A DNA stretch of 64,000 nucleotides from Trueperaceae bacterium (GCA_965213925.1 OZ243927.1:4192001-4256000); one strand, 5' to 3'; shown: positions 20,630 to 53,831, counted from the first letter of the stretch. Numbers and translations are program-made. Notes: generated by a model from the sequence alone, not told the origin.

Positions 20630-21280
20630 TCAGGGAGATTCCGCCGGGATGTAAGGAGAATCGGGCGTATCGAAGTAAGGCGGCGCGACCTCACCTCTCA
20701 CTAGTTCGAACACGAAAGGAACCCAGTGGCGGTGCCCGTAATGAAGCTCAGGTAGGTCATTTTCAGCGAAGTAGTCTATCTCGAGCGCCTCAGCGCTCAC
20801 CTGCGGCTCGCCGTTCACGATTCTCGCCTCGAACATCACGTGGTAGAGCTGCGACTTGACGAGGCTGTGCCAGAGCCGCGAGTCAAACACCGCCAAGAGC
20901 CGCGTCACTTCGACCTCGCAGCCAATCTCCTCTCGCGCCTCGCGAACCGCACCTTCCGCGAGCGTCTCGCCCACGTCGGACGCGCCGCCGGGCGTCGCCC
21001 AAAGTTTCGTATCGTGGCGCTTAATAAGGAGTAAGCGGTCTTCTCTAAAAATTGCCACGTCTGTACCGGCTAGGGGAGTCTCTTGAGCGAGGTTGCCTCT
21101 AAACTGGGCTAAGACCTCTTCGGCGTCTCGGTTCTCAGCGTTGGCGATGAGCCTCGAGCCGAGTGCCAGAACGCGCTCATACCGCTCTCTGTCGTAGTCG
21201 TCTCTCGCGTAGGTCAAGCCTTGCGACGCCAGGGCGCGGAGTTCATCAACGATTTCGTAGATCGTTTTCAGCGTAGCCAT
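20630..21280 (-). CDS. NUDIX hydrolase with N-terminal Nudix_N domain
   Basis: ASQGLTYARDDYDRERY; Nudix box GG...GETLAEGAVREAREEIG. Confidence 0.9.
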   Translation of the reverse strand: MATLKTIYEIVDELRALASQGLTYARDDYDRERYERVLALGSRLIANAENRDAEEVLAQFRGNLAQETPLAGTDVAIFREDRLLLIKRHDTKLWATPGGASDVGETLAEGAVREAREEIGCEVEVTRLLAVFDSRLWHSLVKSQLYHVMFEARIVNGEPQVSAEALEIDYFAENDLPELHYGHRHWVPFVFELVRGEVAPPYFDTPDSPYIPAESP

Positions 21281-21421
21281 AACGCACGATGCACCATAGA
21301 CCGACGTCACAACTGTGTATCCTCCTGCAAAAAGTCCGCCAACCATACTTTACGTTTGAAACTATCTCACAGAAACATCAAGGTGCTCTCGTGCTTGATG
21401 TCATCATCTAAAGGAGGAACT

Positions 21422-36398: not shown

Positions 36399-38633
36399 GT
36401 GACGAGCCTACGCGAGAGCGCCGCAACTTTTGGACTGTCTGACGAAGAATTTAGTGGCGTTATCGAAGCACTAGGACGCGAGCCGAACGCGCTCGAGGCC
36501 GCCATGTTCGGCGCACTCTGGAGCGAGCACTGCGGCTATAAGAACTCGAGACCTCTTCTTAAACGTCTACCCACCGAAGGTCCGCAAGTTTTACAGGGTC
36601 CGGGCGAGAACGCGGGCGTGGTCGATATCGGCGAGGGGTACGCCGTCGCCTTCAAGATGGAGTCGCACAACCACCCCTCCGCTGTAGAACCCGTGCAGGG
36701 CGCGGCGACGGGCGTGGGCGGAATTTTGCGCGACATCTTCGCGATGGGGGCGCGTCCGGTGGCGGTCTTGGACTCGCTCCGCTTCGGTGATTTAGATAAT
36801 GACCGTACCAAATACCTCTTGAACGGCGTCGTCCACGGCATCTCGCTCTACGGCAACGCGATTGGCGTGCCGACGGTCGGCGGCGACATCGCCTTTCACC
36901 CTTGCTATCAGGAAAACCCTTTAGTCAATGTGATGGCAGTTGGGCTCATGCGCCACGAGCAGCTTCAGTCGGGGACGGTAGGCGAAGTCGGCAACACGCT
37001 CGTCTATGTGGGTTCCAAAACAGGGCGTGATGGGCTCGGCGGCGCGGTTTTCGCCTCGGCGGACCTCTCGGAGCAGAGCGACGCGGATAGACCGGCCGTA
37101 CAAGTGGGCGACCCATTTATGGAGAAGTTGCTGCTAGAGGCGTGCCTAGAAGCCATAGAGCAAGACCTCGTCATCGGCGTGCAAGATATGGGCGCGGCGG
37201 GGCTGACCTCGTCGGTGGCGGAGATGGCGTACCGGGCAGGTCGAGGCATCGACTTTTATGTGGACAAGGTGCCGCGCCGTGAGACGGGGATGACACCTCT
37301 TGAAGTCCTCCTCTCCGAATCGCAAGAGCGCATGGTGCTCGTTCCCAAACCGGGCAAAGAGGCTGAACTCCTGAAGTTGCTGGGAAGGTGGGAACTCGAA
37401 GCCGTCATCGTTGGTGAGGTCGCGAGCCACGGGATGTTTCGGATTGTAGAAAACGGTGAGGTTGTCGGCGACATGCCCGTCGTCGCCCTGAATGAAGCGC
37501 CGACCTATACTCGAGAAGGCGTCGAGGACGAAGAGGTCCGCGCTAAGCGTGAACAGTCTATAGAGGTGGACGTTCCCGATAATTTGGAAGAGGTCTTGCT
37601 TAGGCTTCTCAGTAGCCCCACCATCGCTTCCAAGCGACCTGTTTTCGAGCAGTACGACCACCAAGTGATGACCAATACGGTGGTTCTGCCCGGTCAGGCT
37701 GACGCCGCCGTGTTGCGCGTCAAGGGAACCTCTCGCGGGATTGCCATGACCGTAGACTGCAACCCGCGCTACTGCTACTTAGACCCTTACGAGGGCGCGA
37801 AACTCGCCGTCGCCGAAGCCGCGCGCAACCTCGCGTGCGTGGGCGCGACGCCGCTGGCGATCACAGATAACCTCAACTTCGGGAATCCGACACGCTTAGA
37901 TGTTTACTATCAGATGGAACGCGCCGTCGAAGGGTTAAAAGATGCGTGTCTCGCGTTAGGAACCCCTGTCACAGGCGGCAACGTCAGCCTCTACAACCAG
38001 TACCGCACAACTCAAAGTCAGGCTGATGGACTGCGCGCCGTTCACCCCACGCCGAATGTCGGCATGGTCGGCGTCGTGCCCGATATTTCCAAACGAGCGA
38101 CGCAAGACTTCAAGCGAGATGGCGATATCATGATTCTCATTGGTGAAAGTACGGGCGACGGTACAGATGCGTTGGGCGCGTCGGAATACTTGGCGAGGTG
38201 GCACGCTCTAGAAATCGGGCGTCCGCCTGAGTTGGATTTGGAGCGTGCCAAAGCCCTCCAGGATGCGGTTTCTTCTGTAATTCAACAAGGCTTATGCGAC
38301 ACCGCGCACGACCTCTCCGAAGGCGGGCTCGCCGTGGCGCTCGCTGAGATGGTCATCTCCGGGCAAAAGGGTGTTAAAGTATCTCTGAAAGATGGCGTGA
38401 GGGCGGACGCGCTACTTTTCGGTGAGGGTCAGTCTAGAGTTCTCCTCGCATTAAGACCCGAAGTTGTCATCCCGGTGGAAACCCTCCTGACAAGCTACAA
38501 ACTCCCCTTTCAAACGCTTGGTAAAGTTGGCGGCAAGGGGCTCGAGCTAGAGCTACCAGATCAAACCGTAACCCTATCCCTAAAGACCCTGACCGAAACC
38601 TTTGAACAACCCTTGAGAGAGGCACTTGCATGA
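36399..38633 (+). CDS. purL: phosphoribosylformylglycinamidine synthase subunit PurL
   Basis: WSEHCGYK, ESHNHPS, QDMGAAGL, SESQERM, GGNVSLYN. Confidence 0.97.
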   Translation: MTSLRESAATFGLSDEEFSGVIEALGREPNALEAAMFGALWSEHCGYKNSRPLLKRLPTEGPQVLQGPGENAGVVDIGEGYAVAFKMESHNHPSAVEPVQGAATGVGGILRDIFAMGARPVAVLDSLRFGDLDNDRTKYLLNGVVHGISLYGNAIGVPTVGGDIAFHPCYQENPLVNVMAVGLMRHEQLQSGTVGEVGNTLVYVGSKTGRDGLGGAVFASADLSEQSDADRPAVQVGDPFMEKLLLEACLEAIEQDLVIGVQDMGAAGLTSSVAEMAYRAGRGIDFYVDKVPRRETGMTPLEVLLSESQERMVLVPKPGKEAELLKLLGRWELEAVIVGEVASHGMFRIVENGEVVGDMPVVALNEAPTYTREGVEDEEVRAKREQSIEVDVPDNLEEVLLRLLSSPTIASKRPVFEQYDHQVMTNTVVLPGQADAAVLRVKGTSRGIAMTVDCNPRYCYLDPYEGAKLAVAEAARNLACVGATPLAITDNLNFGNPTRLDVYYQMERAVEGLKDACLALGTPVTGGNVSLYNQYRTTQSQADGLRAVHPTPNVGMVGVVPDISKRATQDFKRDGDIMILIGESTGDGTDALGASEYLARWHALEIGRPPELDLERAKALQDAVSSVIQQGLCDTAHDLSEGGLAVALAEMVISGQKGVKVSLKDGVRADALLFGEGQSRVLLALRPEVVIPVETLLTSYKLPFQTLGKVGGKGLELELPDQTVTLSLKTLTETFEQPLREALA

Positions 38634-40057
38634 TTCCTTTGGACGTTTACGGTGACGTTGATGGTGACAAACCCCGCGAAGAGTGCGGCGTCTTCGCCGT
38701 GCACCTCCCTGAACCTGCAGATATCGCCGCGCTCTGCCATCTAGGGGTTTTCGCCCTCCAACATAGAGGTCAGGAGTCGTGCGGCATCTGCGTGTCGAAC
38801 GGTGAGGACATCGTCATCGAGAAGGACATGGGGCTCGTCGCGGAGGTCTTTACCGAGGAGCGTATCGAGAAGTTGCGCCTACCCAACATGCGTACGGGCA
38901 TCGGTCACACGCGCTACTCCACGACAGGCTCATCCTTACGCTTCAACGCCCAACCGCTGACGGTGCGCTCGAACAAAGGGCTCTTAGCGCTCGCTCATAA
39001 CGGCAACTTCACCAATGCTAAAGCGATTCGCGTTGAGATGCTGGGCAACGGCGCAGTCTTTCAAACCACCAACGACAGTGAAGTCATGATCAACCTCATC
39101 GCCCGCTACAGCCAACTCTCCTTAGAGGACGCCACCGCGCAGGTGATGAGCGAACTCGAGGGTGGCTTCGCCGTCGTCATCATGGACAAGACCAAGATCA
39201 TCGGGCTGCGCGACGCCAACGGGGTGCGACCTCTCGTCATTGGCGGATTAGAGGGCGGCTACGTCTTCGCCTCGGAGGTTTCTGCTCTCCATGTCATTGG
39301 CGCGTCATACCTGCGCGACGTGAAACCGGGCGAACTCGTCGTGGCGGATGACGCGGGCTTGCACTCGAGGCAAGTTTTAGAGCCTATCCCGACCCCCTGC
39401 GCCTTTGAGTGGATTTACTTTGCGAGAGGGGATGGGACGTTGGACGGGGCGGACGTGCACGCCTCGAGAATCCGCATGGGCGAAGTTTTAGCGGAAGAAT
39501 CTCCGACCGACGCCGACGTGATTGTTGGCGTGCCCGAGTCCGGCTTACCTGCTGCGATTGGGTACGCAAGGGCCTCGGGTATCCCCTTCGACTTAGGGCT
39601 TTATAAATCCCCTTACGCCGGGCGCACCTTCATCAACCCTACCCAAAGGCTGCGCGATCTCAAAGTCAAGCTCAAGCTCGCGCCCACCGCCGCTGTTAAG
39701 GGCAAGCGCGTCGTCTTAGTTGACGACTCCATCGTGCGCGGCACGACCTCGGGGCGCATCGTGCAGCTTCTCCGGGACGCCGGAGCTAAAGAGGTTCACT
39801 TTCGCGTCTCCTCGCCACCCATTAAATACCCCTGTTACTACGGCATCGACACGGCGGCGCGTAAAGAACTCGCGGCGGCGACGATGAGTGTGGAGGAAAT
39901 CTGTGAGCGCATCGGGGCGGATTCGCTCTCCTTTATCTCCGAAGCGGGGCTTTCAAAGGCGATTGGGCTGACGCGGACCTGTTTAGCTTGTTTTGATGGA
40001 GCGTATCCGGCGGGGGTGCCGGAGGAGGAGCAAGAGGAGAGTTTGGTGGCGGTTTGA
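38630..40057 (+). CDS. purF: amidophosphoribosyltransferase
   Basis: EECGVF, LQHRGQE, GHTRYST, VDDSIVRGTT. Confidence 0.97.
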   Translation: MIPLDVYGDVDGDKPREECGVFAVHLPEPADIAALCHLGVFALQHRGQESCGICVSNGEDIVIEKDMGLVAEVFTEERIEKLRLPNMRTGIGHTRYSTTGSSLRFNAQPLTVRSNKGLLALAHNGNFTNAKAIRVEMLGNGAVFQTTNDSEVMINLIARYSQLSLEDATAQVMSELEGGFAVVIMDKTKIIGLRDANGVRPLVIGGLEGGYVFASEVSALHVIGASYLRDVKPGELVVADDAGLHSRQVLEPIPTPCAFEWIYFARGDGTLDGADVHASRIRMGEVLAEESPTDADVIVGVPESGLPAAIGYARASGIPFDLGLYKSPYAGRTFINPTQRLRDLKVKLKLAPTAAVKGKRVVLVDDSIVRGTTSGRIVQLLRDAGAKEVHFRVSSPPIKYPCYYGIDTAARKELAAATMSVEEICERIGADSLSFISEAGLSKAIGLTRTCLACFDGAYPAGVPEEEQEESLVAV

Positions 40058-40063
40058 AGGCTG

Positions 40064-41611
40064 CTAACTCTCCATCCTCAAATTGTAGAATATTTCTAGT
40101 TGGGTTTTAACTTTCTCTCTTAGGTCATTCGTGTCATCTGCCGTTAGAACCTGAAATGACTTGATGTTGAAACCCACGTCCTTTGAGAAATCGCTGCCCG
40201 AAATTGACTTGTTGTGAACCAGTATAAAGTTGTCTTGGCTCAAGCCAGCCCCTTTATTGGCACCCATTAGGTAGCCGATTTCATGATAGACATTTTTGTT
40301 TCCGAGAGAGAGGTCAGCAATAAGTAAGCCGCTGTCGTAAATTAGTTGCAGTATCTCACTATCAATCTCGTAAGAATGCCCTTTAAGATACTCATCAATT
40401 CGTATCTCCCGAAGTTCCAGGTCGAGCTTATGCTCCGTGTTTACGTCATTGACAGCATTCATGATTGCTGTATGGTTCGACTTCGTTTCGGAGCTAAACT
40501 GCATTGAAACGAAAATGGTTCTTTTCTTCGCCTCGAGCACACAATTGAAGATTTTGATGAGTTCTTTAGCGTCGGTGTTTTTGGTTTGATAAAGATGATT
40601 TTTGAGCACCCAGTTTGTAAAAACATTCAAGGTCAACTTAGATTTGAAAGCGTAGTAGATGAACGCAGTGAGTAGCCCCTCGTTAGGGTTCCGATAGAGT
40701 CTTTCGTCGCTATAAATTTCGTTGACCGCAGCCAAATGTTTCTTGAAAACATCCAGCTCATCACCTACCTGTAATAAACCACCGTCTAGCAGAAGTTGAA
40801 ACGAGTTGAGCAGGAAGGTGCGCTTAATGCACGCGCTCTCCTGTGGGTCAAGCACTGCCTTAATGTTTTGCAACATTGATAAATTCCAGCTCAGCAGCAT
40901 CTTTCGCGCTAAGACGTAAGATTCACCGAAGGATTTTCTGAGAACATCGTCAGAGAAAAGCGCTTCGTCTTCGAGAATCAGTTTAAGGCTTTGCTCCATC
41001 GTCAGGGCGATTTGGCGAAAGTTGATGTTGTGAAATAGTGCCCGGCTATACCTCTTCAACTCATCGTCTGACCGAAAAAGAACTAAGCAAAACGGCACGT
41101 TGTAGTTGCTGAACTTCTGACGTAACTCTTCGTCTAAACTGTCGCCATGATTCGTGAGAACGCTTAAACGGTGATTGCCGTCTATACGGTGAAACTTGGA
41201 GAAGTTGCTACTCTCCTCGAGCAGCGCATCATCAATCATCAGCCTTGTCCTTCGAAAGTAAATCTTTGAGCGCAATTCGTTAGGGCTTGAACGGCTTGTG
41301 ATGTAGTCCCTGAGCGTGAACTCAGTAAATTCATGTTTTGCGCCTTTGTCACCCTGCAGCGCTAAAATAAAGTCATTTACTCCGCCCAGATTACTACCGT
41401 CATCTAGGCTTGCTCCTAAGATGACCTCGGGAAAGAAAAGGAAACGCTCCTCATTCAAAAAATCAATCATCTCCTGACGATGCTCCGTAATCAGGTCGCG
41501 CTGATAGCTCTCGTCAGGCGCTGAGATTTTGTCCAAATCCCCCAATGACGCAAAGCCGCGCAAGCAGATGAAGTTACCCAGCGAGTTATCTAAGACCCCT
41601 TCTAAAATCAC
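40064..41611 (-). CDS. DGQHR/DndB-like domain fused to C-terminal nucleoside 2-deoxyribosyltransferase/TIR-like domain
   Basis: N-term YQRDL, FFPEVIL, RIDGNHRL, FHNINFRQ; C-term IFVSMQF, RIDE, IADLS..NKNVYHEIGY. Confidence 0.75.
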   Translation of the reverse strand: MILEGVLDNSLGNFICLRGFASLGDLDKISAPDESYQRDLITEHRQEMIDFLNEERFLFFPEVILGASLDDGSNLGGVNDFILALQGDKGAKHEFTEFTLRDYITSRSSPNELRSKIYFRRTRLMIDDALLEESSNFSKFHRIDGNHRLSVLTNHGDSLDEELRQKFSNYNVPFCLVLFRSDDELKRYSRALFHNINFRQIALTMEQSLKLILEDEALFSDDVLRKSFGESYVLARKMLLSWNLSMLQNIKAVLDPQESACIKRTFLLNSFQLLLDGGLLQVGDELDVFKKHLAAVNEIYSDERLYRNPNEGLLTAFIYYAFKSKLTLNVFTNWVLKNHLYQTKNTDAKELIKIFNCVLEAKKRTIFVSMQFSSETKSNHTAIMNAVNDVNTEHKLDLELREIRIDEYLKGHSYEIDSEILQLIYDSGLLIADLSLGNKNVYHEIGYLMGANKGAGLSQDNFILVHNKSISGSDFSKDVGFNIKSFQVLTADDTNDLREKVKTQLEIFYNLRMES

Positions 41612-43044
41612 GCCGCCTCACCTAAGATCATGGCTTCAACTTCACGCTTAGCTTGCTCTAAAGTATTACTTGCTTCGCCTCGTAACTGCTTTGCCTTGAG
41701 TCTAATTGAAGCTATCTCTTGCGCAATAGTTTGCTGTTCCATAAGAGAGGGTAAAGGAATATTTACCTGCGCAAGCGCATCATTGTTGACACCCGATTGG
41801 TTGTTCCAGTTTGTGCAAATTTTGAAGAAAACTTTTCGCCGCTGATACATATTGAGCAAAGCTGTCAGGTAACGAGGTGAAACTACGTTCTCATTGAGAC
41901 TAATGCGCGTGATGTGATTGGAGCAGAAATAATCACCGTCTAAGTCAAATAGTACAGTTTTTCCCACCAGCTCTTGACTGTTAGTGTTGTTGAAAAGCAC
42001 CTCATTTCGTCTCAGTAAATCGTTTTCATGATGTTCTTTTTGCACGTAGTCAATTAGTACGTTCTTTTCAAATATTAACTCTCTCGCGGGACTGATGTTT
42101 GTAGGACGTATCTGAACAATGCCTTCAGATTGCCTTGCCTGGTCTTGCTTCCCGGCAGCAAAGCCCGTCTGAAGGTGTTGTACAACGTCTTTCAATCGCT
42201 CCATAGGATAAGTCGAGCCTTCAAGCATCTTATAAACACCTTGCGTATGAAATAGCGGGTCTAATCTACTACCCGTAACATCGCTGAGTTTCCGGTAAAA
42301 GACTCGATTCTGCAAATCGTTTTTTTCCTCGAGCGGCTTTTCGATACCTAGAGCCTCGAGCAGGTAATCATCTATCCCATCTAAAAGCTGCTGAGCGGCG
42401 GCTTCTTTTTGTTTTTTCAACTCGTAGGCAGCGTTAATCTTAGCTACTACATTCTCTTGTACCTCTTTTGATGGCAAAGGGATAGGTAGACTTTTATATT
42501 CTTCTGCGTTTATGTTTGGCTGTCCTGCTGCACGTTGCACTGCTTGAACCCACTTCTGATATACGCCAAGCTGAGTGAATGCAAAGAGGTAGTCTGGGCT
42601 TATCAGCTCAGAATTCACAACGAGACGAATCATATAACCAGCAAAAAAACATGGGTAGTCAACTGATTCAGTTTTATGTATGTACGCTTTGCCTACTGTG
42701 GCACCACTCCGAGCGAACAGAAGATCGTTGTTTTCGAGTAGATACTGATCTTCTATAACGTCTGCTGTAACACCAACTTCGTTTCTCAAAAGACCATATT
42801 CATCAACATCCGTAATCCTGATATATCTCGGTTCGTCTAAACTCAATCTTTCTTTCCCCGGCTCATTGGCTCCATACTGAGGTTTCTTCTGTAAAAGCGT
42901 CCCGAGTTTTCTGGGCTCGAACTTGTAGTGCGTAATAGTTCTGTTGTATAGAACCATTAAAGGGTCAAATCTAGCTTGAAGCTCGCTGAGATTAGCTATA
43001 AAAATTTTCGGCTCGTCTGTACTTATTGAAAGCTCAAAACTCAC
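41608..43044 (-). CDS. hsdS: restriction-modification specificity subunit (HsdS-like, two TRDs)
   Basis: RFDP/RLDP, YIRITD, DLLFARSGATVGK, QPNIN...PIPLPSKEVQ, then a second TRD with NIPLPSLMEQQTI. Confidence 0.9.
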   Translation of the reverse strand: MSFELSISTDEPKIFIANLSELQARFDPLMVLYNRTITHYKFEPRKLGTLLQKKPQYGANEPGKERLSLDEPRYIRITDVDEYGLLRNEVGVTADVIEDQYLLENNDLLFARSGATVGKAYIHKTESVDYPCFFAGYMIRLVVNSELISPDYLFAFTQLGVYQKWVQAVQRAAGQPNINAEEYKSLPIPLPSKEVQENVVAKINAAYELKKQKEAAAQQLLDGIDDYLLEALGIEKPLEEKNDLQNRVFYRKLSDVTGSRLDPLFHTQGVYKMLEGSTYPMERLKDVVQHLQTGFAAGKQDQARQSEGIVQIRPTNISPARELIFEKNVLIDYVQKEHHENDLLRRNEVLFNNTNSQELVGKTVLFDLDGDYFCSNHITRISLNENVVSPRYLTALLNMYQRRKVFFKICTNWNNQSGVNNDALAQVNIPLPSLMEQQTIAQEIASIRLKAKQLRGEASNTLEQAKREVEAMILGEAA

Positions 43045-45173
43045 GCTTGCCCCTGCTCAACAGCCCGAATGAACCTGCTCAACTCCTCACCTATCGCCCC
43101 AAGCTCACTGTTATGCGTCTCTTTACCCGTCGCGTCATAACCGATGTCTTCGGCTATCGCCATGAGTATCGGGTAATCGTCTAAGACCTCTTGTTTGCGC
43201 TCGTCGTAGCTTTCTAGTAGCTCTTCTTTTAGCGCATCTACCTGCTGCCTGTAATATTCGCTCACCTCTTTGCGCCAGTCCTTGTAAGCTTGGTTGTCGC
43301 GTAACGCCTTGCCGCTCAAATCTTGCGCGTTGTCAAAGCCGCGCAGCTCGGCGAGGTGCTGCTTTTTCGCGTCGTCAATCTCTTGTAATCGTTGCAAATA
43401 GTCGTGGTCAGTGAGGATGTCACTCTGCAGGGAGGCTTTTTGCTGTTTGATGCGTTCGGTGGCCGCCTCGTCGTGCTTTCTCAGGAAAAGCACGGAGCTT
43501 TTGACGCCTGCGCCCGTCGCGGTAAAGGCGGTCTGGGGCATACTGACAACGGCTACGACGCGGTACATCTCTTCGATATTGTCGCGTACGTATTGGAGGC
43601 TCGAGTTCGTCAGGATGCCGTCGGGCACGACCATTGCTAAGTAACCGCCCGCTTTTAAGAAGTTGTGACACTGTTCTATAAAGAGAACTTCGGTGCTTTG
43701 GTTGGGGCGCTCGCTGCGCTTGCTCTTGGGGTCGAGCCAGCTCCCTTCTTTGTAGGCAAAGCCGTAGTTGCCCATGTAAGCCTGCTCGGTTTGTTTAACA
43801 ACGGAGCCAAAAGGCGGATTGGTGATGACAAAGTCAAAGGTCCCGTAGGTGAAGCCTTGATTTTTAGTACGGTTGTAGATGTCCTCACCGCTGATGAGCC
43901 CGTCTGCTGCGATGACGTTGGTGTGTCCGTCGTCGTGAATGATCATGTTCATCTTAGCAACCCTAGCGATTTGCTCGTTGATTTCAATACCGAAGAGGTT
44001 TTTCTCGGCGAACGTGTGCCAATGTCGGTAGTGATTTCTACCTTCAGGCGTTTTCTCGTCTCCGATTTCATTAGGGTAGTAATCATCTGCTTCACGTCTT
44101 ACTTTGTCTAGCGCATGAAGTAAAAAACCACCACTACCGCAGGAGGTGTCTAATACTTTTGACGTATGAGTTATAGGTAGCACATCAACAATGAACCTAA
44201 CAATAGGGCGTGGTGTGAAGTACTGTCCAAAATCTCCCCTGAAAAATGACCCCATAAATGTTTCAAAGGCTCGCCCTTTGCTATCTAAGTCAGTTTCTCC
44301 TAAATTTACACTCTGTAAGTACCCCACGACTGTACGTAATTTGTCAGCGCTCAAACGTATGTCTTCCTTAAAGACCTCAGTGTCCCTCTTGCGACCTTCT
44401 TGGTAAAGGGATTCAATCCGTTTAAGTAGCTCTTGATTTGTCTTCCCCTCAGTGTCTTCTTGAAAAATTTGGAACTTATAGGGCTCACCTGATTTACAGT
44501 TTCGCTCATCCCAGATTTTGCAGAAGATGAGTTTATCTAGCTCATCAAAGGCTGACGAAGGGTTGAGTTCGCCGCCACCCCATAAAGCTTGATGTGCTTG
44601 CTTGAAGCACCTAGTTAATTCACCTTCTTCAACCACTTCTAAGTCAAAAAACCTTTGACCGTTCGGAGTTGTACCACCACCCTTGACGTATTTGTACTTC
44701 GCAATATTGGTGACACCGTACTGGGGAATGTCAGGGATGGTCAGACGGTCTTTAGGCTTCTTTTTGGGGACTTCGTAGTAAACATCTTTGATTCCTGACG
44801 TAACCCACACGTACCTAGCGCCCTCAGCTACGGCGTAGCTAAACGCTTGTTCAACGGCTTGCTTGAACTCGAGTTCTGAAACGTCTTCCTTTTTGCACTC
44901 CACAACGATATGAGGAGAAAGGTGCTGGTCATCGTTGTAGACGATGATGTCGGCTTCGCGTTGGCTCGAGCCCATCGTCACGCTCACGAAAGAGCGTATC
45001 CTGTTAGGCGAATATCCGTAGGTGAGAATAAGCTTTAAGAAGGTTTCTGCTTGTACCTTCTCTTCCGGGTTAGCGTAGTTGCGGCGTCTGTTCTCATTCA
45101 GATAAACAACGTTTTTCTTGTCGTTGTCAATTAGAATAAAATTTTGCTTCACACCGTGTTCTATTAGGTTCAT
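43041..45173 (-). CDS. fused HsdR_N-type nuclease / N6-adenine DNA methyltransferase (type IIB/IIG-like RM subunit)
   Basis: PEEKVQ, ADIIVY...VECKK nuclease motif; GQYFTPR, LDTSCGSGGFL, NPPF. Confidence 0.9.
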   Translation of the reverse strand: MNLIEHGVKQNFILIDNDKKNVVYLNENRRRNYANPEEKVQAETFLKLILTYGYSPNRIRSFVSVTMGSSQREADIIVYNDDQHLSPHIVVECKKEDVSELEFKQAVEQAFSYAVAEGARYVWVTSGIKDVYYEVPKKKPKDRLTIPDIPQYGVTNIAKYKYVKGGGTTPNGQRFFDLEVVEEGELTRCFKQAHQALWGGGELNPSSAFDELDKLIFCKIWDERNCKSGEPYKFQIFQEDTEGKTNQELLKRIESLYQEGRKRDTEVFKEDIRLSADKLRTVVGYLQSVNLGETDLDSKGRAFETFMGSFFRGDFGQYFTPRPIVRFIVDVLPITHTSKVLDTSCGSGGFLLHALDKVRREADDYYPNEIGDEKTPEGRNHYRHWHTFAEKNLFGIEINEQIARVAKMNMIIHDDGHTNVIAADGLISGEDIYNRTKNQGFTYGTFDFVITNPPFGSVVKQTEQAYMGNYGFAYKEGSWLDPKSKRSERPNQSTEVLFIEQCHNFLKAGGYLAMVVPDGILTNSSLQYVRDNIEEMYRVVAVVSMPQTAFTATGAGVKSSVLFLRKHDEAATERIKQQKASLQSDILTDHDYLQRLQEIDDAKKQHLAELRGFDNAQDLSGKALRDNQAYKDWRKEVSEYYRQQVDALKEELLESYDERKQEVLDDYPILMAIAEDIGYDATGKETHNSELGAIGEELSRFIRAVEQGQA

Positions 45174-45438
45174 TAGCTTGTAATAATAACGTTTTTGAGC
45201 AGTCCTGGTATCATCTCAAAGATGAAGCAACCATGTTCCTCTCACTATTCCAAGAGTCTCCTACCGTATCTCCCGCGCCAGCAACCCTATTCCTGAAAGG
45301 ACCTCATGACCCGCCAACAGGTCCTCGAGAAAACCAAACACCTCCACGCTTTAGATGACGAGGCGCTCGAGCCAACCAACGCCATCCTCTAAAAAGGCTA
45401 CACTAAGGGCTACAAATACTACCTTCAAGGAGGTCACG

Positions 45439-45698
45439 GTGAAGCGTGTCGGTATCCGCGAATTCAAAGACAAAGCCACACCGCCCTGATTGCCGAAGAG
45501 AAGGGTTTGGTTATCGAGAAGCACGGCAAACCTGTCGGGTTTTATATTCCGCTTCCCAAAAAGGACAAGGTAAAGACGAAAGAGGCGGCGCGGAGGCTCG
45601 AGCACACCATCGAAGGTATTTTAGAGCGCACGGGCATGAACCGCGCCGAACTCGAGGCGGCTTGGGACGAGGCGGAGCGCGTCTCGAGTCTTCAATAA
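45439..45698 (+). pseudogene. Phd/YefM-like antitoxin, frameshifted
   Basis: AAGGAGG RBS, GTG start, MKRVGIREFKDKAT, frameshift at GCCACACCGCC, then ALIAEEKGLVIEKHGKPVGFYIP. Confidence 0.75.
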
Positions 45699-45713
45699 AG
45701 TAGAATGAACTCT

Positions 45714-46262
45714 ATGGTAGCAGGCGCACCCAAACACACCTTCACAGCAGATGAATTTCTGCGGCTCGCCGAGCTTAACTTCTTCGGTGAGGGCGAGCGC
45801 GTCGAGCTTTTAGAGGGGGAAATCTACCACATGTCGCCTACCGGTCCTTCTCACGGCGCGGCAGTAGCTCGCCTTCACGAGCGTTTACTCCTTGCCCTTG
45901 TCGGGCGTACCATCCTCTGGAACCAGTCCTCGGTACGTTTGGGTATATCTATGCCAGAACCCGACTTAGCGCTTCTAGTACCTAAAGCTGACTACTACGC
46001 AAGCGCAAATCCTGAACCGGAGGACATTTTGCTTGTAATTGAGGTGGCGCAAACCTCTTTAGCCTACGACCGCGCTAAGCTCGCTATTTACGCTCGTAAC
46101 GGCGTGCAAGAGGTGTGGATTGCTGACCTTGATGGTGAGTTGCTCGAGGTCTACCGAGAACCGGGCGCGGGTACGTATAGAACTTCGTTCGCCCTGAACT
46201 TCAACGAACCGCTGAGTCCGCTCGCGTTTCCTGATGAAGCTGGGGTGTGGTTGGGTCAATAG
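45714..46262 (+). CDS. Uma2 (DUF820) family endonuclease
   Basis: RVELLEGEI..MSP, PEPDL, LVIEVA, K..IYA..GVQEVWIADL. Confidence 0.92.
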   Translation: MVAGAPKHTFTADEFLRLAELNFFGEGERVELLEGEIYHMSPTGPSHGAAVARLHERLLLALVGRTILWNQSSVRLGISMPEPDLALLVPKADYYASANPEPEDILLVIEVAQTSLAYDRAKLAIYARNGVQEVWIADLDGELLEVYREPGAGTYRTSFALNFNEPLSPLAFPDEAGVWLGQ

Positions 46263-46265
46263 CGG

Positions 46266-46889
46266 CTACTGCATCTCCCGCGCCAAGAGCCCCGTCGTCG
46301 AAACCAGCACCGCGTAACGCTTAGGTTCCCTCGCCGGCACGAATGTCGCGGAGCCGTAGCGGGCGTCCACGAGGGTTTCTAAGGGCTCGTAGCGCTGCAC
46401 CATCCTGAACATGTCTAGCTCGAGCGGCTTCTCCTGCGCCAACGAATACACCGTGCGCGGACGGGTCTGCTCGTCGTCCAAAAGGTCATAGCGCCCTGCC
46501 ACCCGGTCGAGTTCGTACATCGTGCGCAAGCCTAAAAGGTTCGCCCTCGGATGCCACTTGAGGATGTGCGCGTCAACGAAGAGAGCGTCGCCTGCAAGCT
46601 CAAACGTCTCGGTTCTGCCGTCTGGAAATTCGAACACGGCGCGGTAGCGCTGCGTACCAAGAGGTTCGATGGAAACCGTCGCCGCTACCGTCTCCTGGAT
46701 GAGCGACTGATACCCTCTCGTCGCGACGCTCACCAAGCCCGAAGCCGCCGCGATGACGAAGAGGGCAAGGCTGAGAAACCCTCTAAAGGTTGCGCTTCCC
46801 CAGTGCCGTTTCCGGGAGGCGAGCACCGCGTAAACCAGCAGCACGAGCGCGAGCAGCGCGGGTACCCAGGTGAGCAGCGTGAGCATCAC
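46266..46889 (-). CDS. hypothetical membrane protein
   Basis: Two N-terminal TM helices and a soluble domain. Confidence 0.7.
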   Translation of the reverse strand: MMLTLLTWVPALLALVLLVYAVLASRKRHWGSATFRGFLSLALFVIAAASGLVSVATRGYQSLIQETVAATVSIEPLGTQRYRAVFEFPDGRTETFELAGDALFVDAHILKWHPRANLLGLRTMYELDRVAGRYDLLDDEQTRPRTVYSLAQEKPLELDMFRMVQRYEPLETLVDARYGSATFVPAREPKRYAVLVSTTGLLAREMQ

Positions 46890-50823: not shown

Positions 50824-51048
50824 GTGACCTCAGACGATACGGATAAGCGGCGCGTCAAAGAGCTACCTCGAGACTTAGATGAGCGCGTGCGCTTCACGTT
50901 AGACCTCTCGCGCAAACAGCACCGATTTTTGAAACGGTTAGCCTTCGAAGAAGAGGTCAATGCGAGCGCGGTGCTGCGGGCGCTGTTGACTAAGCTCGAG
51001 GAGGACGAAGCGCTCGCTGAAGAGGTTAAAGCCAAGCTAAGGACTTAG
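50824..51048 (+). CDS. ribbon-helix-helix (CopG-like) DNA-binding protein
   Basis: VRFTLDL strand followed by two helices (HRFLKRLA, ASAVLRALL). Confidence 0.65.
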   Translation: MTSDDTDKRRVKELPRDLDERVRFTLDLSRKQHRFLKRLAFEEEVNASAVLRALLTKLEEDEALAEEVKAKLRT

Positions 51049-51113
51049 AGTTTTTTCTCTTTAGTTGTTAGGCGCGGTCAGACTTTGTGACTCGAGTTCG
51101 CTTCTCAATTTAC

Positions 51114-51140
51114 CTAAGTATATACTTAGATATGCTATAC
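51114..51140 (+). promoter_or_regulatory. 16-bp perfect palindrome next to an extended -10 box
   Basis: CTAAGTATATACTTAG (51114-51129) then TGCTATACT. Confidence 0.55.
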
Positions 51141-51199
51141 TAAGAGAGGTAGAGGAGAGCAATTCTTGCAAGTCATCAACGCCGAATGAAAGGGGCAAA

Positions 51200-51415
51200 A
51201 TGCCACATATTAACGTAAGAATTGGCGAGCACGACTTGGTTTTCAAATACGAGGAGGGCGCAAACGGATTTGTAGAGATTCAAGACGCTAACTCAGATAC
51301 GTCACTACACGTTCGCGACGAGGACGGAATGCTCATGGCGCTTCATTTCGTAGAAGGCGAGCAAGACCCTACCTCTCAGATTGAGTTGCTAACGGGTGAT
51401 GTTCATATAGATTGA
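51200..51415 (+). CDS. small acidic hypothetical protein
   Basis: AAGGGG RBS then MPHINVRIG...; 71 aa. Confidence 0.55.
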   Translation: MPHINVRIGEHDLVFKYEEGANGFVEIQDANSDTSLHVRDEDGMLMALHFVEGEQDPTSQIELLTGDVHID

Positions 51416-51454
51416 GATAGCTAAAGCCGCACCGCCTTCTAGCTCGAGAACTCT

Positions 51455-52303
51455 TTAATGACCTCGAGCAAGAAGGTCGGCTAGTTGGTTTTTGTCTACG
51501 AACCCGTGTAAATTTTTTAGGGCAAACTGCCGGAAAGTATCGTTTCCCAGCTCCATCTTTCTGGCTATGCTCAGGTCTAAATACTCTTTTTCCTTGTCTA
51601 TGCCGAGGAATCTTCGGTTTAGTAAATTTGCGGCAATACCTGTTGTGCTACTTCCGGTAAACGGGTCTAAAATCCACGCTCCTTGTCTGCTCGAGGCGAG
51701 AGTGAGACGCGCTAGAACCGCTAGTGGTTTTTGCGTCGGATGCTTGCCGCAGCCTTTCTCCCACTTGGCTAGAGCAGGCATCCTCCACACATCTTTCATC
51801 TGCTTTCCGCTGTTCAACTCTTTCATCAAATCGTAGTTGTAGTAGTGCGGTATATCAGCGTGCTTTCTAGCCCAAATAATCTGCTCTGTAGAGTGCGTAA
51901 AGTAACGGCAGGAGAAGTTAGGAGGTGGATTGGTTTTTTCCCAAGTTATGACGTTAAGTATTTTGAAATCAAGCTCTCTTAAAACCCGTCCAACTTCAAA
52001 TATGTTGTGCATCGTTCCGCTGACCCAAAGAGTTGCATCTTCTTTCATCTTTTGGCGGACCAATGAAAGCCAAGTTTTATTGAACTCGTATATCGCTTCG
52101 AGACCTGCTGATTTGTCCCAAGCACCTTTATTTACGCTTACGACTTTTCCATTTTTGACAGTTAAACCGTCGTTGGAAAGAAAATAAGGTGGGTCAGCAA
52201 ATACTAAGTCGAACTTATGGTCGAACCTCTCAAGTAACTCAAAAGAATCTCCATGCAACAGCGTGAAATGTTTGTCCGCCGATTTATAGTAGGCTTCTAT
52301 CAC
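51455..52303 (-). CDS. beta-class amino DNA methyltransferase (DpnA-like)
   Basis: ADPPYFLSNDG, HPTQKPL, LDPFTGSSTTG. Confidence 0.9.
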   Translation of the reverse strand: MIEAYYKSADKHFTLLHGDSFELLERFDHKFDLVFADPPYFLSNDGLTVKNGKVVSVNKGAWDKSAGLEAIYEFNKTWLSLVRQKMKEDATLWVSGTMHNIFEVGRVLRELDFKILNVITWEKTNPPPNFSCRYFTHSTEQIIWARKHADIPHYYNYDLMKELNSGKQMKDVWRMPALAKWEKGCGKHPTQKPLAVLARLTLASSRQGAWILDPFTGSSTTGIAANLLNRRFLGIDKEKEYLDLSIARKMELGNDTFRQFALKNLHGFVDKNQLADLLARGH

Positions 52304-52908
52304 TACAAATCAATGATCGTTTTTAGGAAGGGTACTCGAGCGTAAAAGGCTCTCGTCGTACTTCCGTGCCCTGTCCCCTTCGTTCTAGGTTGTATATACT
52401 TGCCCATTTTCCCGCTTAACTTGTCAAAGCCTTCTTCTGTGATTACTTTTCTGACTAAATCATAGTCTGCTTTCACTTGTGCGTATACTTCAGGATCATC
52501 GAGGTCAAAAGTGTGAATGCCGTAGAGAGTAGAGGTTGGCTCATCTACGCTTTCCCAAATTCTCGAAGCTATGAGTCCCTTTTGCATCTTTGCTAATAAG
52601 TGGCTCTTTTCAAAAGGGGTATTGCGGACATTGTAAGCATCAATTTTCGTAATGGACAATGTTTCCTTGACGGTCAAAGTGCCTGATTTGAGATACTTTA
52701 ACGAAGCAGTTTTCAGCTCCCAGGAGCCAAAATTCGGAGATTGAGCCGAGTTTAGCGGAAGCCCTAAATAACGTTCGATAACATGTCCCGCCCAACCCTT
52801 ATTCTTTTTTCCCTCTTTGAACACAGTGACCTCGTATTTCTCAGCCATTGCTCTCAAATCTCTACCCTTGATCTTGTCAAGCAACACTATTGCTTCTTCC
52901 CGCTCCAC
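52303..52908 (-). CDS. MutH/Sau3AI-like endonuclease, single domain
   Basis: KNKGWAGHVIERYLG, WELKT, KYIQPRTKG, RAFY. Confidence 0.82.
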   Translation of the reverse strand: MEREEAIVLLDKIKGRDLRAMAEKYEVTVFKEGKKNKGWAGHVIERYLGLPLNSAQSPNFGSWELKTASLKYLKSGTLTVKETLSITKIDAYNVRNTPFEKSHLLAKMQKGLIASRIWESVDEPTSTLYGIHTFDLDDPEVYAQVKADYDLVRKVITEEGFDKLSGKMGKYIQPRTKGTGHGSTTRAFYARVPFLKTIIDL

Positions 52909-53831
52909 TAAAACCGCTCTCCAAAATTCGCGATTAGCAGTTCAGATAGTTTCCCTCGACCGGACGCTTTGGAATTGATAGCTCTATTTGCCATAACCCG
53001 TGATACGTTATGATTCGAATACAAGCTATCAAAAAATTCATCTTGGGTCTCTTGAGTTTTCACATCTGAGTTGCTAAGCAGCCATTTGCAGCCTTTTGCG
53101 TCCAAGAGGTCGCAGAATTCTTTCAAGCGCACTTGCTCACTGTCGTTAAAGACTCCATGAGAGTAAGCGTTGAAACTAGAGGTCTTGCTAATAGGTTTAT
53201 ACGGAGGATCAAGATAAACGAAGGTTTCTTCAGTCACATGCTCTAAGACAATTTCATAGTCCCCATGTAGTATCTCTACGTTTTGCAACCGCTCATGAAC
53301 AATAAGCAAGTTGGTTTCGTCGCAAATTGTTGGATTCTTGTAGCTACCTATAGGAACATTGAACATATTTTTTCTATTGACTCTGTAAAGTCCATTGAAG
53401 CAAGTCTTATTGAGGAAAATAAACAACGCTGCTTGCGTAGTGTTATCAGAGGTGCGCGAATTGTATAACTCTCGTTGTGAGTAATAAAATTTGCTTCGTT
53501 CTTTAGGTTTTTCCGAAAGCGTATCGTACAGCTTCTGCCACTTTTTTAGCGGCTCGATAACTGCATCAACATCCTGAGCGATACACCTGTAGGTGTTGAT
53601 TAAGTCGGCGTTTATGTCGTTAATAACAACGTTTCTAACATTTGGGTAGTTGTTGAGTATCCAAAATAAAACTGAACCTCCGCCAACGAACGGTTCAATA
53701 TACGTGAAGCTTGCTTGATGAGAATATGGCATTCTGCGAGCGATAGCGTCTAAAAGTTGCGTCTTCCCGCCTGCCCATTTCAAAAAGGGTTTTGCGTTAG
53801 CAAAAAGATTGAGCATGTTGCAACTTACCAT
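52908..53831 (-). CDS. Dam/DpnM-like DNA adenine methyltransferase
   Basis: [26 protein letters not shown]...FNVP, YLDPPY. Confidence 0.93.

Follow-up and report, generated by a model that had tools for sequence, protein, structure and literature searches.

We analysed a 64,000-nucleotide stretch of a Trueperaceae bacterium genome (GCA_965213925.1, OZ243927.1:4192001-4256000; hereafter the window), in which a preliminary description had pointed to positions 40064-45173 as a candidate defence system, that is, a restriction-modification (RM) module coupled to a two-domain effector. Three open reading frames (ORFs) on the minus strand fill 40064-45173 and encode proteins of 710 amino acids (aa; ATG start), 478 aa (GTG start), and 515 aa (GTG start). 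They are the RM subunit (43041-45173), the specificity subunit S (41608-43044), and an accessory gene that we designated D (40064-41611). Direct reading of the minus strand gave GTGA both at the RM/S junction (43044-43041) and at the S/D junction (41611-41608), which means that each start codon GTG overlaps the preceding stop codon TGA. The three genes of the cassette are translationally coupled. The stop codon of D (40064-40066) lies 6 bases from the stop codon (40055-40057) of purF, a convergent gene at 38630-40057 named by its Pfam matches to GATase_6/7 and Pribosyltran. The G+C (GC) content is 0.43-0.53 within 40000-45499, compared with 0.54-0.66 in the flanks. The ORF calls, the direct reading, and the GC values bore out every detail that had been described for the gene arrangement, namely three low-GC genes, GTGA overlaps, and 6 bp to the purF stop.

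The RM subunit consists of an N-terminal PD-ExK nuclease (HSDR_N_2, residues 36-150), a helical connector, a gamma-type N6-adenine methyltransferase, and a C-terminal helical tail. It matched HSDR_N_2 (2.2e-16) and N6_Mtase (5.7e-37) in Pfam and the 'type I methyltransferase' model MTase_I (PDLC03030) in PADLOC with 649 bits, and its nearest solved chain is RM.BsaXI (8w0p, E 1.2e-39, residues 28-573). Its nuclease residues are D75, E92-x-K94, and Q109, and its methyltransferase motifs are motif I (342-351) and NPPF (452-455). These four nuclease residues are conserved in 67-68 of 71 aligned RM sequences, with gaps in the remainder, and NPPF in all 71. The S subunit has two target recognition domains (TRDs); Methylase_S of Pfam matched it in two stretches (2.8e-20), and Specificity_I of PADLOC (1.9e-52) covered both halves. 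By these matches, RM and S look like a type IIB-like (BsaXI/BcgI-like) restriction-modification enzyme. The RM module of the preliminary description is therefore present, and its class is refined to a type IIB-like enzyme with its own nuclease, the closest chain being that of BsaXI and the nuclease residues being kept. An enzyme of this type restricts without HsdR; the cassette holds no HsdR, and the hsdR-like genes that were found are all distant, on contig C5 or, on contig C1, at 1.6 Mb. Two other assignments were rejected: a type I restriction-modification system, since the cassette has no HsdR translocase-nuclease, and MADS, for which the MAD2 and MAD5 scores (304 and 92 bits) fell short of their cut-offs (720 and 400), with no other mad gene in the cassette.

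Family and domains of D

D comprises 515 codons and a stop codon, and its GTG start, which overlaps the S stop, is supported by its relatives, which begin with M-I/K-L at the same alignment column. Three parts can be distinguished. Residues 1-200 (41012-41611, minus strand) form a predicted ParB-fold nucleotide-binding domain of the DGQHR type, assigned from TIGR03187 and Foldseek. Residues 201-359 (40535-41011) form a middle part that is all-helical in the secondary structure of the models and may be a linker or possibly a DNA-binding part. Residues 360-515 (40067-40534) form a flavodoxin-like domain, which from its fold and profile matches is a putative N-glycosidase of the nucleoside deoxyribosyltransferase (NDT) type, related to TIR, with Glu444 as the catalytic-type residue.

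The N-terminal part contains the motifs YQR (36-38), FFPE (59-62), IDGNHR (143-148), and FHNINFRQ (193-200), and the C-terminal part contains FVSMQF (367-372), RIDE (404-407), IADLS (431-435), and NVYHEIGY (440-447). The family counts at least 1,130 clusters (90% identity) at E<=0.001 among the 8,000 candidates examined, and the C-terminal profile gave 176 representatives (50% identity) at E<=1e-30. In an alignment of 109 sequences reaching down to ~22% identity, G145, N146, H147, R148, F193, N197, and F367 are kept in 109/109, Q37 and R38 in 108 (the other row being a gap), N440 in 107, and E444 in 108 (again with one gap). The D-G-N-H-R motif is kept in 108-109 of the 109, and the signature of the family accordingly reads DGNHR, not DGQHR. 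Thus, all motifs that had been quoted for the third protein are present in the translation and near-invariant in the family; judged from this alignment, they are evidently not chance.

Domain matches were counted among relatives of D at E<=0.1 (n=51 for the N-terminal part, n=88 for the C-terminal part). TIGR03187 (DGQHR) matched 49/51 relatives, with a best value of 2.9e-15, followed by DGQHR_dnd_1 (23/51), Pfam DndB (20/51), DpdB (19/51), and GmrSD_N (17/51). AlphaFold models were obtained with a mean confidence (pLDDT) of 92 for residues 1-358 and 88.7 for full-length D. The top 11 Foldseek matches of the 1-358 model were chains of ParB, Noc, or pNOB8-ParB (best 7bm8, E 6.4e-4, TM 0.54 on the target), and the ParB alignments covered 268-292 columns of this 358-residue model. 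In VIA-align, PadC, SspE, pNOB8 ParB, KorB, and BrxU were within the best six matches of the N-terminal model, with Z of 5.2-5.9; since these values are tied with those of PAS domains, this evidence for the ParB fold is modest. SspE and BrxU aligned weakly to residues 9-358 (Z 5.6 and 5.2, root-mean-square deviation [rmsd] 10-12 A). When solved structures were searched by sequence, the full-length and N-terminal D profiles found none. Overall, the DGQHR/ParB domain call of the preliminary description holds at the family level, with 49/51 relatives matching TIGR03187 and ParB-type chains as the best fold matches. The C-terminus of DndB was called HEPN by Makarova et al. (PMC3632139); a HEPN reading of the helical middle of D was rejected, since no conserved R-x4-6-H motif occurs there. 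Among proteins longer than 902 aa, no fusions of D were found, which is weak evidence.

For the C-terminal domain, residues 360-512 of the full model aligned with 7m5h, TIR domains, NDTs, and MilB at Z of 11-13 in VIA-align; the fold reached Z of 10-12.5 with TIRAP, MAL, RPS4, and SARM1, which is tied with NDTs. Sequence profiles tipped the balance towards NDT. Nuc_deoxyrib_tr (PF05014) matched 55/88 relatives (best 8e-8), compared with 18/88 for CAP12-PCTIR_TIR, 2/88 for ThsB_TIR, and 1/88 for TIR_2. A family profile searched against the PDB found the Trypanosoma brucei NDT (2a0k, 3.2e-5) and the cytidine monophosphate N-glycosidase BcmB (4jen, 2.9e-4), and also the Leishmania mexicana NDT, Cap12, and Rcl/DNPH1. 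The segment hEiGy of D, which contains E444, is aligned on fEvGc of 2a0k and iEiGw of 4jen; the equivalent Glu of NDT is the nucleophile, according to literature cited in the part of PMC3710099 consulted. PADLOC 2.0 has no model for D, and only its TIR effector model matched, at E 0.0034. Leads from the protein atlas, all below 0.9, were NDT, Cap17-like, and CAP12 TIR clusters. Among proteins shorter than 283 aa, the only relatives of the C-terminal domain were fragments of the D family, with none standing alone. These profile matches lean towards a domain nearer to NDT-type nucleotide N-glycosidases than to TIR. The preliminary description had called the domain NDT/TIR-like; the fold, the profiles, and the aligned Glu uphold the call at the family level, and it is narrowed to the NDT type rather than classical TIR.

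Association of D with RM genes

We scanned one genome per species (185,579 genomes) and obtained 377 pattern matches; a relative of D is encoded at 232 of them, and the best 80 of these D-centred loci were examined. Seventy loci reach at least 3.7 kb upstream of D, and in 69 of them an RM gene lies directly upstream. By tblastn, S was found in 61 of the 69 RM-bearing loci; the remaining eight have an S that is fused to RM or so divergent that tblastn misses it, yet an S-family ORF occurs there as well, and clustering detected such an ORF in 73 of all 80. The overlap between the S stop and the D start has a median of 4 bp, and the position of D varies, either after S or between RM and S. The hosts belong to Proteobacteria, Bacteroidota, Firmicutes, Verrucomicrobia, Planctomycetes, Thermotoga, spirochaetes, and others. 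The sole exception is L073 (1774-9584), in which D comes three ORFs after an Eco57I-like type IIG enzyme that is encoded on the same strand; the gene order there is the Eco57I-like methylase of 1,156 aa, a 601-aa protein without a known family, an ion-channel-domain protein, and D. The D-centred loci often add Mrr, GmrSD, McrBC, Ymh-HEPN, HEPN_LA2681, or DUF4062. This neighbourhood survey of homologues confirmed the proposed linkage of the third gene to an RM module, and the surroundings of the D loci are defence islands, in agreement with the defence setting first suggested.

Metagenomes were then scanned with the RM protein, so that the loci were not picked for D. From the best 80 RM-centred loci, 28 were too short to judge; in the 52 with at least 3.1 kb downstream of RM, D was present in 29 and absent in 23. 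Placed on the RM tree (53 rows), the distribution of D required at least 11 gains or losses, compared with a mean of 17.7 after shuffling, and none of 500 shuffles gave a number as low. Of 83 D-linked RM proteins, 81 retain the nuclease and NPPF residues (the other two have gaps there), as do 23/23 D-less ones. In the D-less cassettes, AbiJ_NTD5-kinase, SoFic, CAP12-type TIR, ORF6N, KAP NTPase, DUF3375, HEPN_Apea, GmrSD, DUF1016, AbiH, and Zeta toxin genes are found in the third-gene slot or beside it. The RM proteins nearest to that of the window (~70% identity; loci L089, L090, and L127) are RM-S fusions of ~1,190 aa with no third gene on the same strand. Thus, D depends on the enzyme class and the enzyme does not depend on D, a pattern expected of a dedicated accessory. 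We conclude that D is a dedicated accessory and not a core subunit.

In one RM lineage (L118:5460-7667 and L124:7487-8440), a gene resembling tRNA-guanine transglycosylase (TGT) follows D (tgt_general, 3.9e-6, below the cut-off). In L118, the next gene is N-glycosylase/DNA lyase-like (Ogg-like, 1.4e-34) and is followed by a QueC-like gene (1.1e-31). The genes of L118 and L124 resemble a DNA-modification module of the deazaguanine type next to a DGQHR protein.

Mobility and surroundings of the cassette

D was found in one of 41 related genomes, namely the window's own. The cassette is flanked by purL and purF on one side and a Uma2-family gene on the other, and a same-genus genome has ~1.4 kb at the purF-Uma2 site, with three ORFs (227, 73, and 144 aa), of which the 144-aa one encodes a PIN protein. 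The 5.1-kb low-GC insert is a mobile cassette that was horizontally acquired. Neither an Rfam family, a tRNA, a flanking direct repeat, nor a clear terminator was found to mark the island ends, and the counts of promoter-like and terminator-like sequences equal the shuffled expectation. No phage record with D was found, and D occurs in 4 of 2.9 million viral contigs. One plasmid (Leisingera, L081:5864-8107) holds an apparent hybrid remnant. Chimeric ORFs that join an N-terminal part of RM or a part of S to a C-terminal part of D were seen in L081, P0322, P0324, P0294, P0295, and P0325; these could be deletion remnants or true fusions.

Several features near the cassette were recorded. The segment 45405-45680, in the intergenic space upstream of the RM gene, has copies of ~275 bp with 76-78% identity elsewhere in three related genomes; read directly, it resembles a small gene broken by an early stop, and it gave no Rfam or tRNA match. 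The adjacent Uma2-family gene (45705-46262, plus strand) matched the PADLOC candidate PDC-S03 (1.4e-8). The next ORF (207 aa, 46266-46889, minus strand) has no Pfam or PADLOC match; the same-genus genome G001 lacks it in its syntenic region, which makes it a second indel adjoining the cassette. At 51455-53831 (minus strand), where the GC content is low for a second time (0.46 at 51000-51999), three adjacent genes encode two methyltransferases (one of type II with 282 aa, the other with 307 aa) and a 201-aa protein that matched a model for type II restriction enzymes; the three resemble a type II restriction-modification system separate from the cassette. Farther off, a 238-aa ORF (20633-21346, minus strand) matched PDC-S07 (1.2e-9). 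PADLOC was run on 47 of the 66 ORFs of at least 150 aa in the window (three ORFs at E<=0.1, 44 at E<=1e-5; the other 19 are mostly nested ORFs or Pfam-named genes), and no dnd, ssp, pbe, or dpd model was matched in these 47, consistent with the earlier statement that the window has no dnd, pbe, or dpd genes.

Possible roles of D and comparison with known systems

We tentatively favour, with somewhat less than even confidence, the reading that D is a nucleoside triphosphate (NTP)-gated N-glycosidase forming a second layer of defence, most likely acting on deoxynucleotides or nucleotides. RM and S would form an (RM)2S enzyme like BsaXI, by which host sites would be methylated and unmethylated incoming DNA cut. 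D fills the slot in which other cassettes of the same class hold abortive-infection or type IV restriction genes, and its architecture is like that of GmrSD, SspE, and BrxU with the HNH nuclease swapped for a putative NDT-type N-glycosidase. The ParB/DGQHR module may be a switch dependent on NTP and on DNA (or on the state of RM), and Glu444 would be the nucleophile for cleavage of N-glycosidic bonds of deoxynucleotides or nucleotides, possibly also of nicotinamide adenine dinucleotide (NAD). In this way, D might starve or poison phage replication where restriction alone is insufficient.

Several observations weigh against this reading. D of the window matches no Pfam or NCBIfam family above threshold; it scores 14 bits (E 0.031) against TIGR03187, whose cut-off is 58.85, and its C-terminal domain alone gives 0 Pfam hits, being below every threshold. 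At no position of RM does the residue follow the presence or absence of D (frequencies differ by 0.46 at most, and the changes are conservative), and the identities of RM and D correlate weakly (rho 0.18 over 82 loci, with 0/300 permutations as high), so there is no sign of a co-evolved interface. On the viral contig L172 (83-7575), D has no methyltransferase beside it; the genes there encode, in order, a protein like an RNA-dependent RNA polymerase, a 280-aa ORF, an extracytoplasmic function sigma factor (sigma70) fused to a type I TRD, D, and an Mrr-type nuclease. TIR-type NADase chemistry is still conceivable for D, given the CAP12-PCTIR_TIR matches and the tied TIR and NDT folds, and an NDT-like fold can also be a ligand sensor or act on DNA. 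Our data establish how the genes are arranged, which domains they encode, that the catalytic-type residues are conserved, and that D depends one-sidedly on RM in genomes; the activity, substrate, and trigger of D, its contact with RM, and its defence phenotype are what we infer. The action put forward in the preliminary description, in which D would guard the RM complex or sense phage nucleotides and then destroy dNMP or NAD or make a signal, is likewise a hypothesis.

Among the other explanations, it is possible, if rather unlikely, that D acts on DNA in a type IV-like or GmrSD-like manner. D would load on DNA through its ParB-like module and use its NDT-like domain to excise or exchange bases, for example the hypermodified bases of phages that escape methylation-based restriction, and this would complement RM. 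The architecture parallels that of GmrSD, SspE, and BrxU, with GmrSD_N among the N-terminal matches and SspE and BrxU within the six best VIA-align matches, although the latter fold matches are weak. Genes for the type IV enzymes GmrSD, Mrr, and McrBC share its slot. The solved relatives of the C-terminal domain include MilB and DNPH1 (5-hydroxymethyl-deoxyuridine monophosphate N-hydrolase, as named by its depositors), which are hydroxymethyl-pyrimidine nucleotide hydrolases, and it has been proposed that defence-linked NDT domains attack DNA (in the part of PMC3710099 consulted). However, the matched NDT-family enzymes are named for nucleosides or mononucleotides and none for DNA, and there would be no need for a type IV-like enzyme to keep to a single RM class, as D does (69/70).

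We consider it improbable that D is a defence gene in its own right, carried along in the cassette with no functional dependence on RM. Unlike the other genes of the slot, D is found with this RM class almost without exception, it adjoins a TRD-bearing protein even in the odd locus L172, and its C-terminal domain has no stand-alone relatives among shorter proteins, only family fragments. These findings have to be set against a slot that holds many unrelated stand-alone defence genes, the shuffling of RM and D relative to each other with no RM residue tracking D, and the precedent of TgvAB, which is embedded in a type I restriction-modification (T1RM) locus and is reported to function without the restriction activity of HsdR (PMC11411939, in the part consulted).

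The near-invariance of Glu444, N440, and G446 in the 109 sequences points to catalysis by D, which makes a purely regulatory role doubtful as well. Such a regulator would bind DNA and nucleotide like DndB and tune expression or the balance between methylation and restriction, with the C-terminus as a ligand sensor. The DGQHR domain is common to DndB and DpdB, DndB has been reported as an ATP-modulated repressor (PMC4507180, discussed in PMC10853773, each as far as the accessible part goes), and the ParB fold of D continues into helices at the place of the DNA-binding domain of ParB. Nevertheless, D is the last or middle gene of a translationally coupled operon, unlike typical controller genes, and RM is unchanged in the 23/52 cassettes without D.

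There is also a small chance, argued by analogy, that the restriction enzyme directs D to DNA, on which D would work as a transglycosylase or glycosylase, its DGQHR/ParB module serving the fused NDT-type domain as DpdB serves the transglycosylase DpdA. NTP would then be used to open the DNA, and bases would be excised or exchanged on the deoxyribose at or near sites set by S. If so, a second chemical mark would be placed on host DNA, or abasic damage on phage DNA. The TGT-like gene after D in L118 and L124, together with the Ogg-like and QueC-like genes in L118, is a hint in this direction. Finally, it is very improbable that D is an obligatory restriction enzyme subunit, such as an NTP-dependent sliding clamp for communication between sites, in spite of its ParB-CTPase fold, translational coupling, and RM linkage, because it is absent from 23/52 cassettes with intact motifs, including the ~70%-identical RM-S fusions, and BsaXI was reconstituted from RM and S alone (PMC9159934, in the part consulted).

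An NTP-gated N-glycosidase wired to a restriction enzyme would be of interest in several respects. Second-layer effectors of this kind, such as PrrC, Ronin, and TgvAB, reveal how bacteria respond once phages defeat restriction, and the D cassette is a widespread further candidate, with the 232 relatives of the species-level scan spread over many phyla. D would provide an example of a DGQHR protein with a role beyond the modification of DNA by sulfur or deazaguanine, and the swappable third-gene slot of type IIB-like enzymes is a place to seek more defence genes. Defence genes embedded in RM loci are a known theme (PMC11411939, in part; 10.1101/2024.01.29.577857). Among the papers that it reached, our literature search found no description of D or of the RM-S-D trio, nor of an NDT-type N-glycosidase under a ParB-type nucleotide switch tied to restriction.

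The core of the cassette resembles BsaXI and BcgI in that one RM chain combines PD-ExK with an N6-adenine methyltransferase, the two-TRD HsdS-like subunit is separate, and HsdR is lacking. These enzymes are described as (RM)2S (PMC11997821, in part). The BsaXI chain has 916 aa compared with 710 aa in the window, and two-sided cleavage would be a prediction for the window enzyme. In the parts consulted, published BsaXI work describes RM and S alone (PMC11997821, PMC9159934), and the accessible part of the cryo-electron microscopy paper on BsaXI contains neither 'operon' nor 'ParB' (PMC11997821).

D itself shares with GmrSD, BrxU, and SspE a predicted ParB-fold NTP-binding N-terminus with D-G-x-x-R, a helical linker, a C-terminal effector, and a setting in defence islands or linked to RM, BREX, or Ssp. 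Their ParB-like NTPase part is DUF262, their effector is a DUF1524 HNH domain, and their motif is DGQQR, whereas D has an NDT-type domain and DGNHR; GmrSD_C is not among the families listed for full-length relatives of D. The D family also matches DGQHR/DndB models more often than DUF262, and the fold matches to this group are weak. With DndB and DpdB, D shares the DGQHR-type ParB domain, but it has no dnd or dpd genes in the window, carries N for Q in 109/109 sequences, has an added C-terminal NDT-like domain, and is partnered by a predicted adenine-methylating type IIB enzyme. NDT, DNPH1, MilB-BcmB, and CAP12-type TIR effectors have the fold and the conserved Glu position in common with D, in which, in contrast, the domain is the C-terminus of a 500-aa ParB fusion in an RM operon.

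As in PrrC-EcoprrI and Ronin, an effector gene is constantly linked to RM subunit genes. The idea behind those two systems is that a second layer fires once restriction is blocked; PrrC is an anticodon nuclease, RonA is a 61-aa membrane protein, and Ronin is without a nuclease (10.1101/2023.04.06.535777, in the part consulted). D is neither an anticodon nuclease nor a 61-aa membrane protein, and its cassette keeps the nuclease. Caging of D by RM would be a conjecture by analogy. PrrC, Ronin, and TgvAB are nonetheless precedents for RM-linked second-layer effectors (10.1101/2023.04.06.535777 and PMC11411939, both in part), a group to which D may belong.

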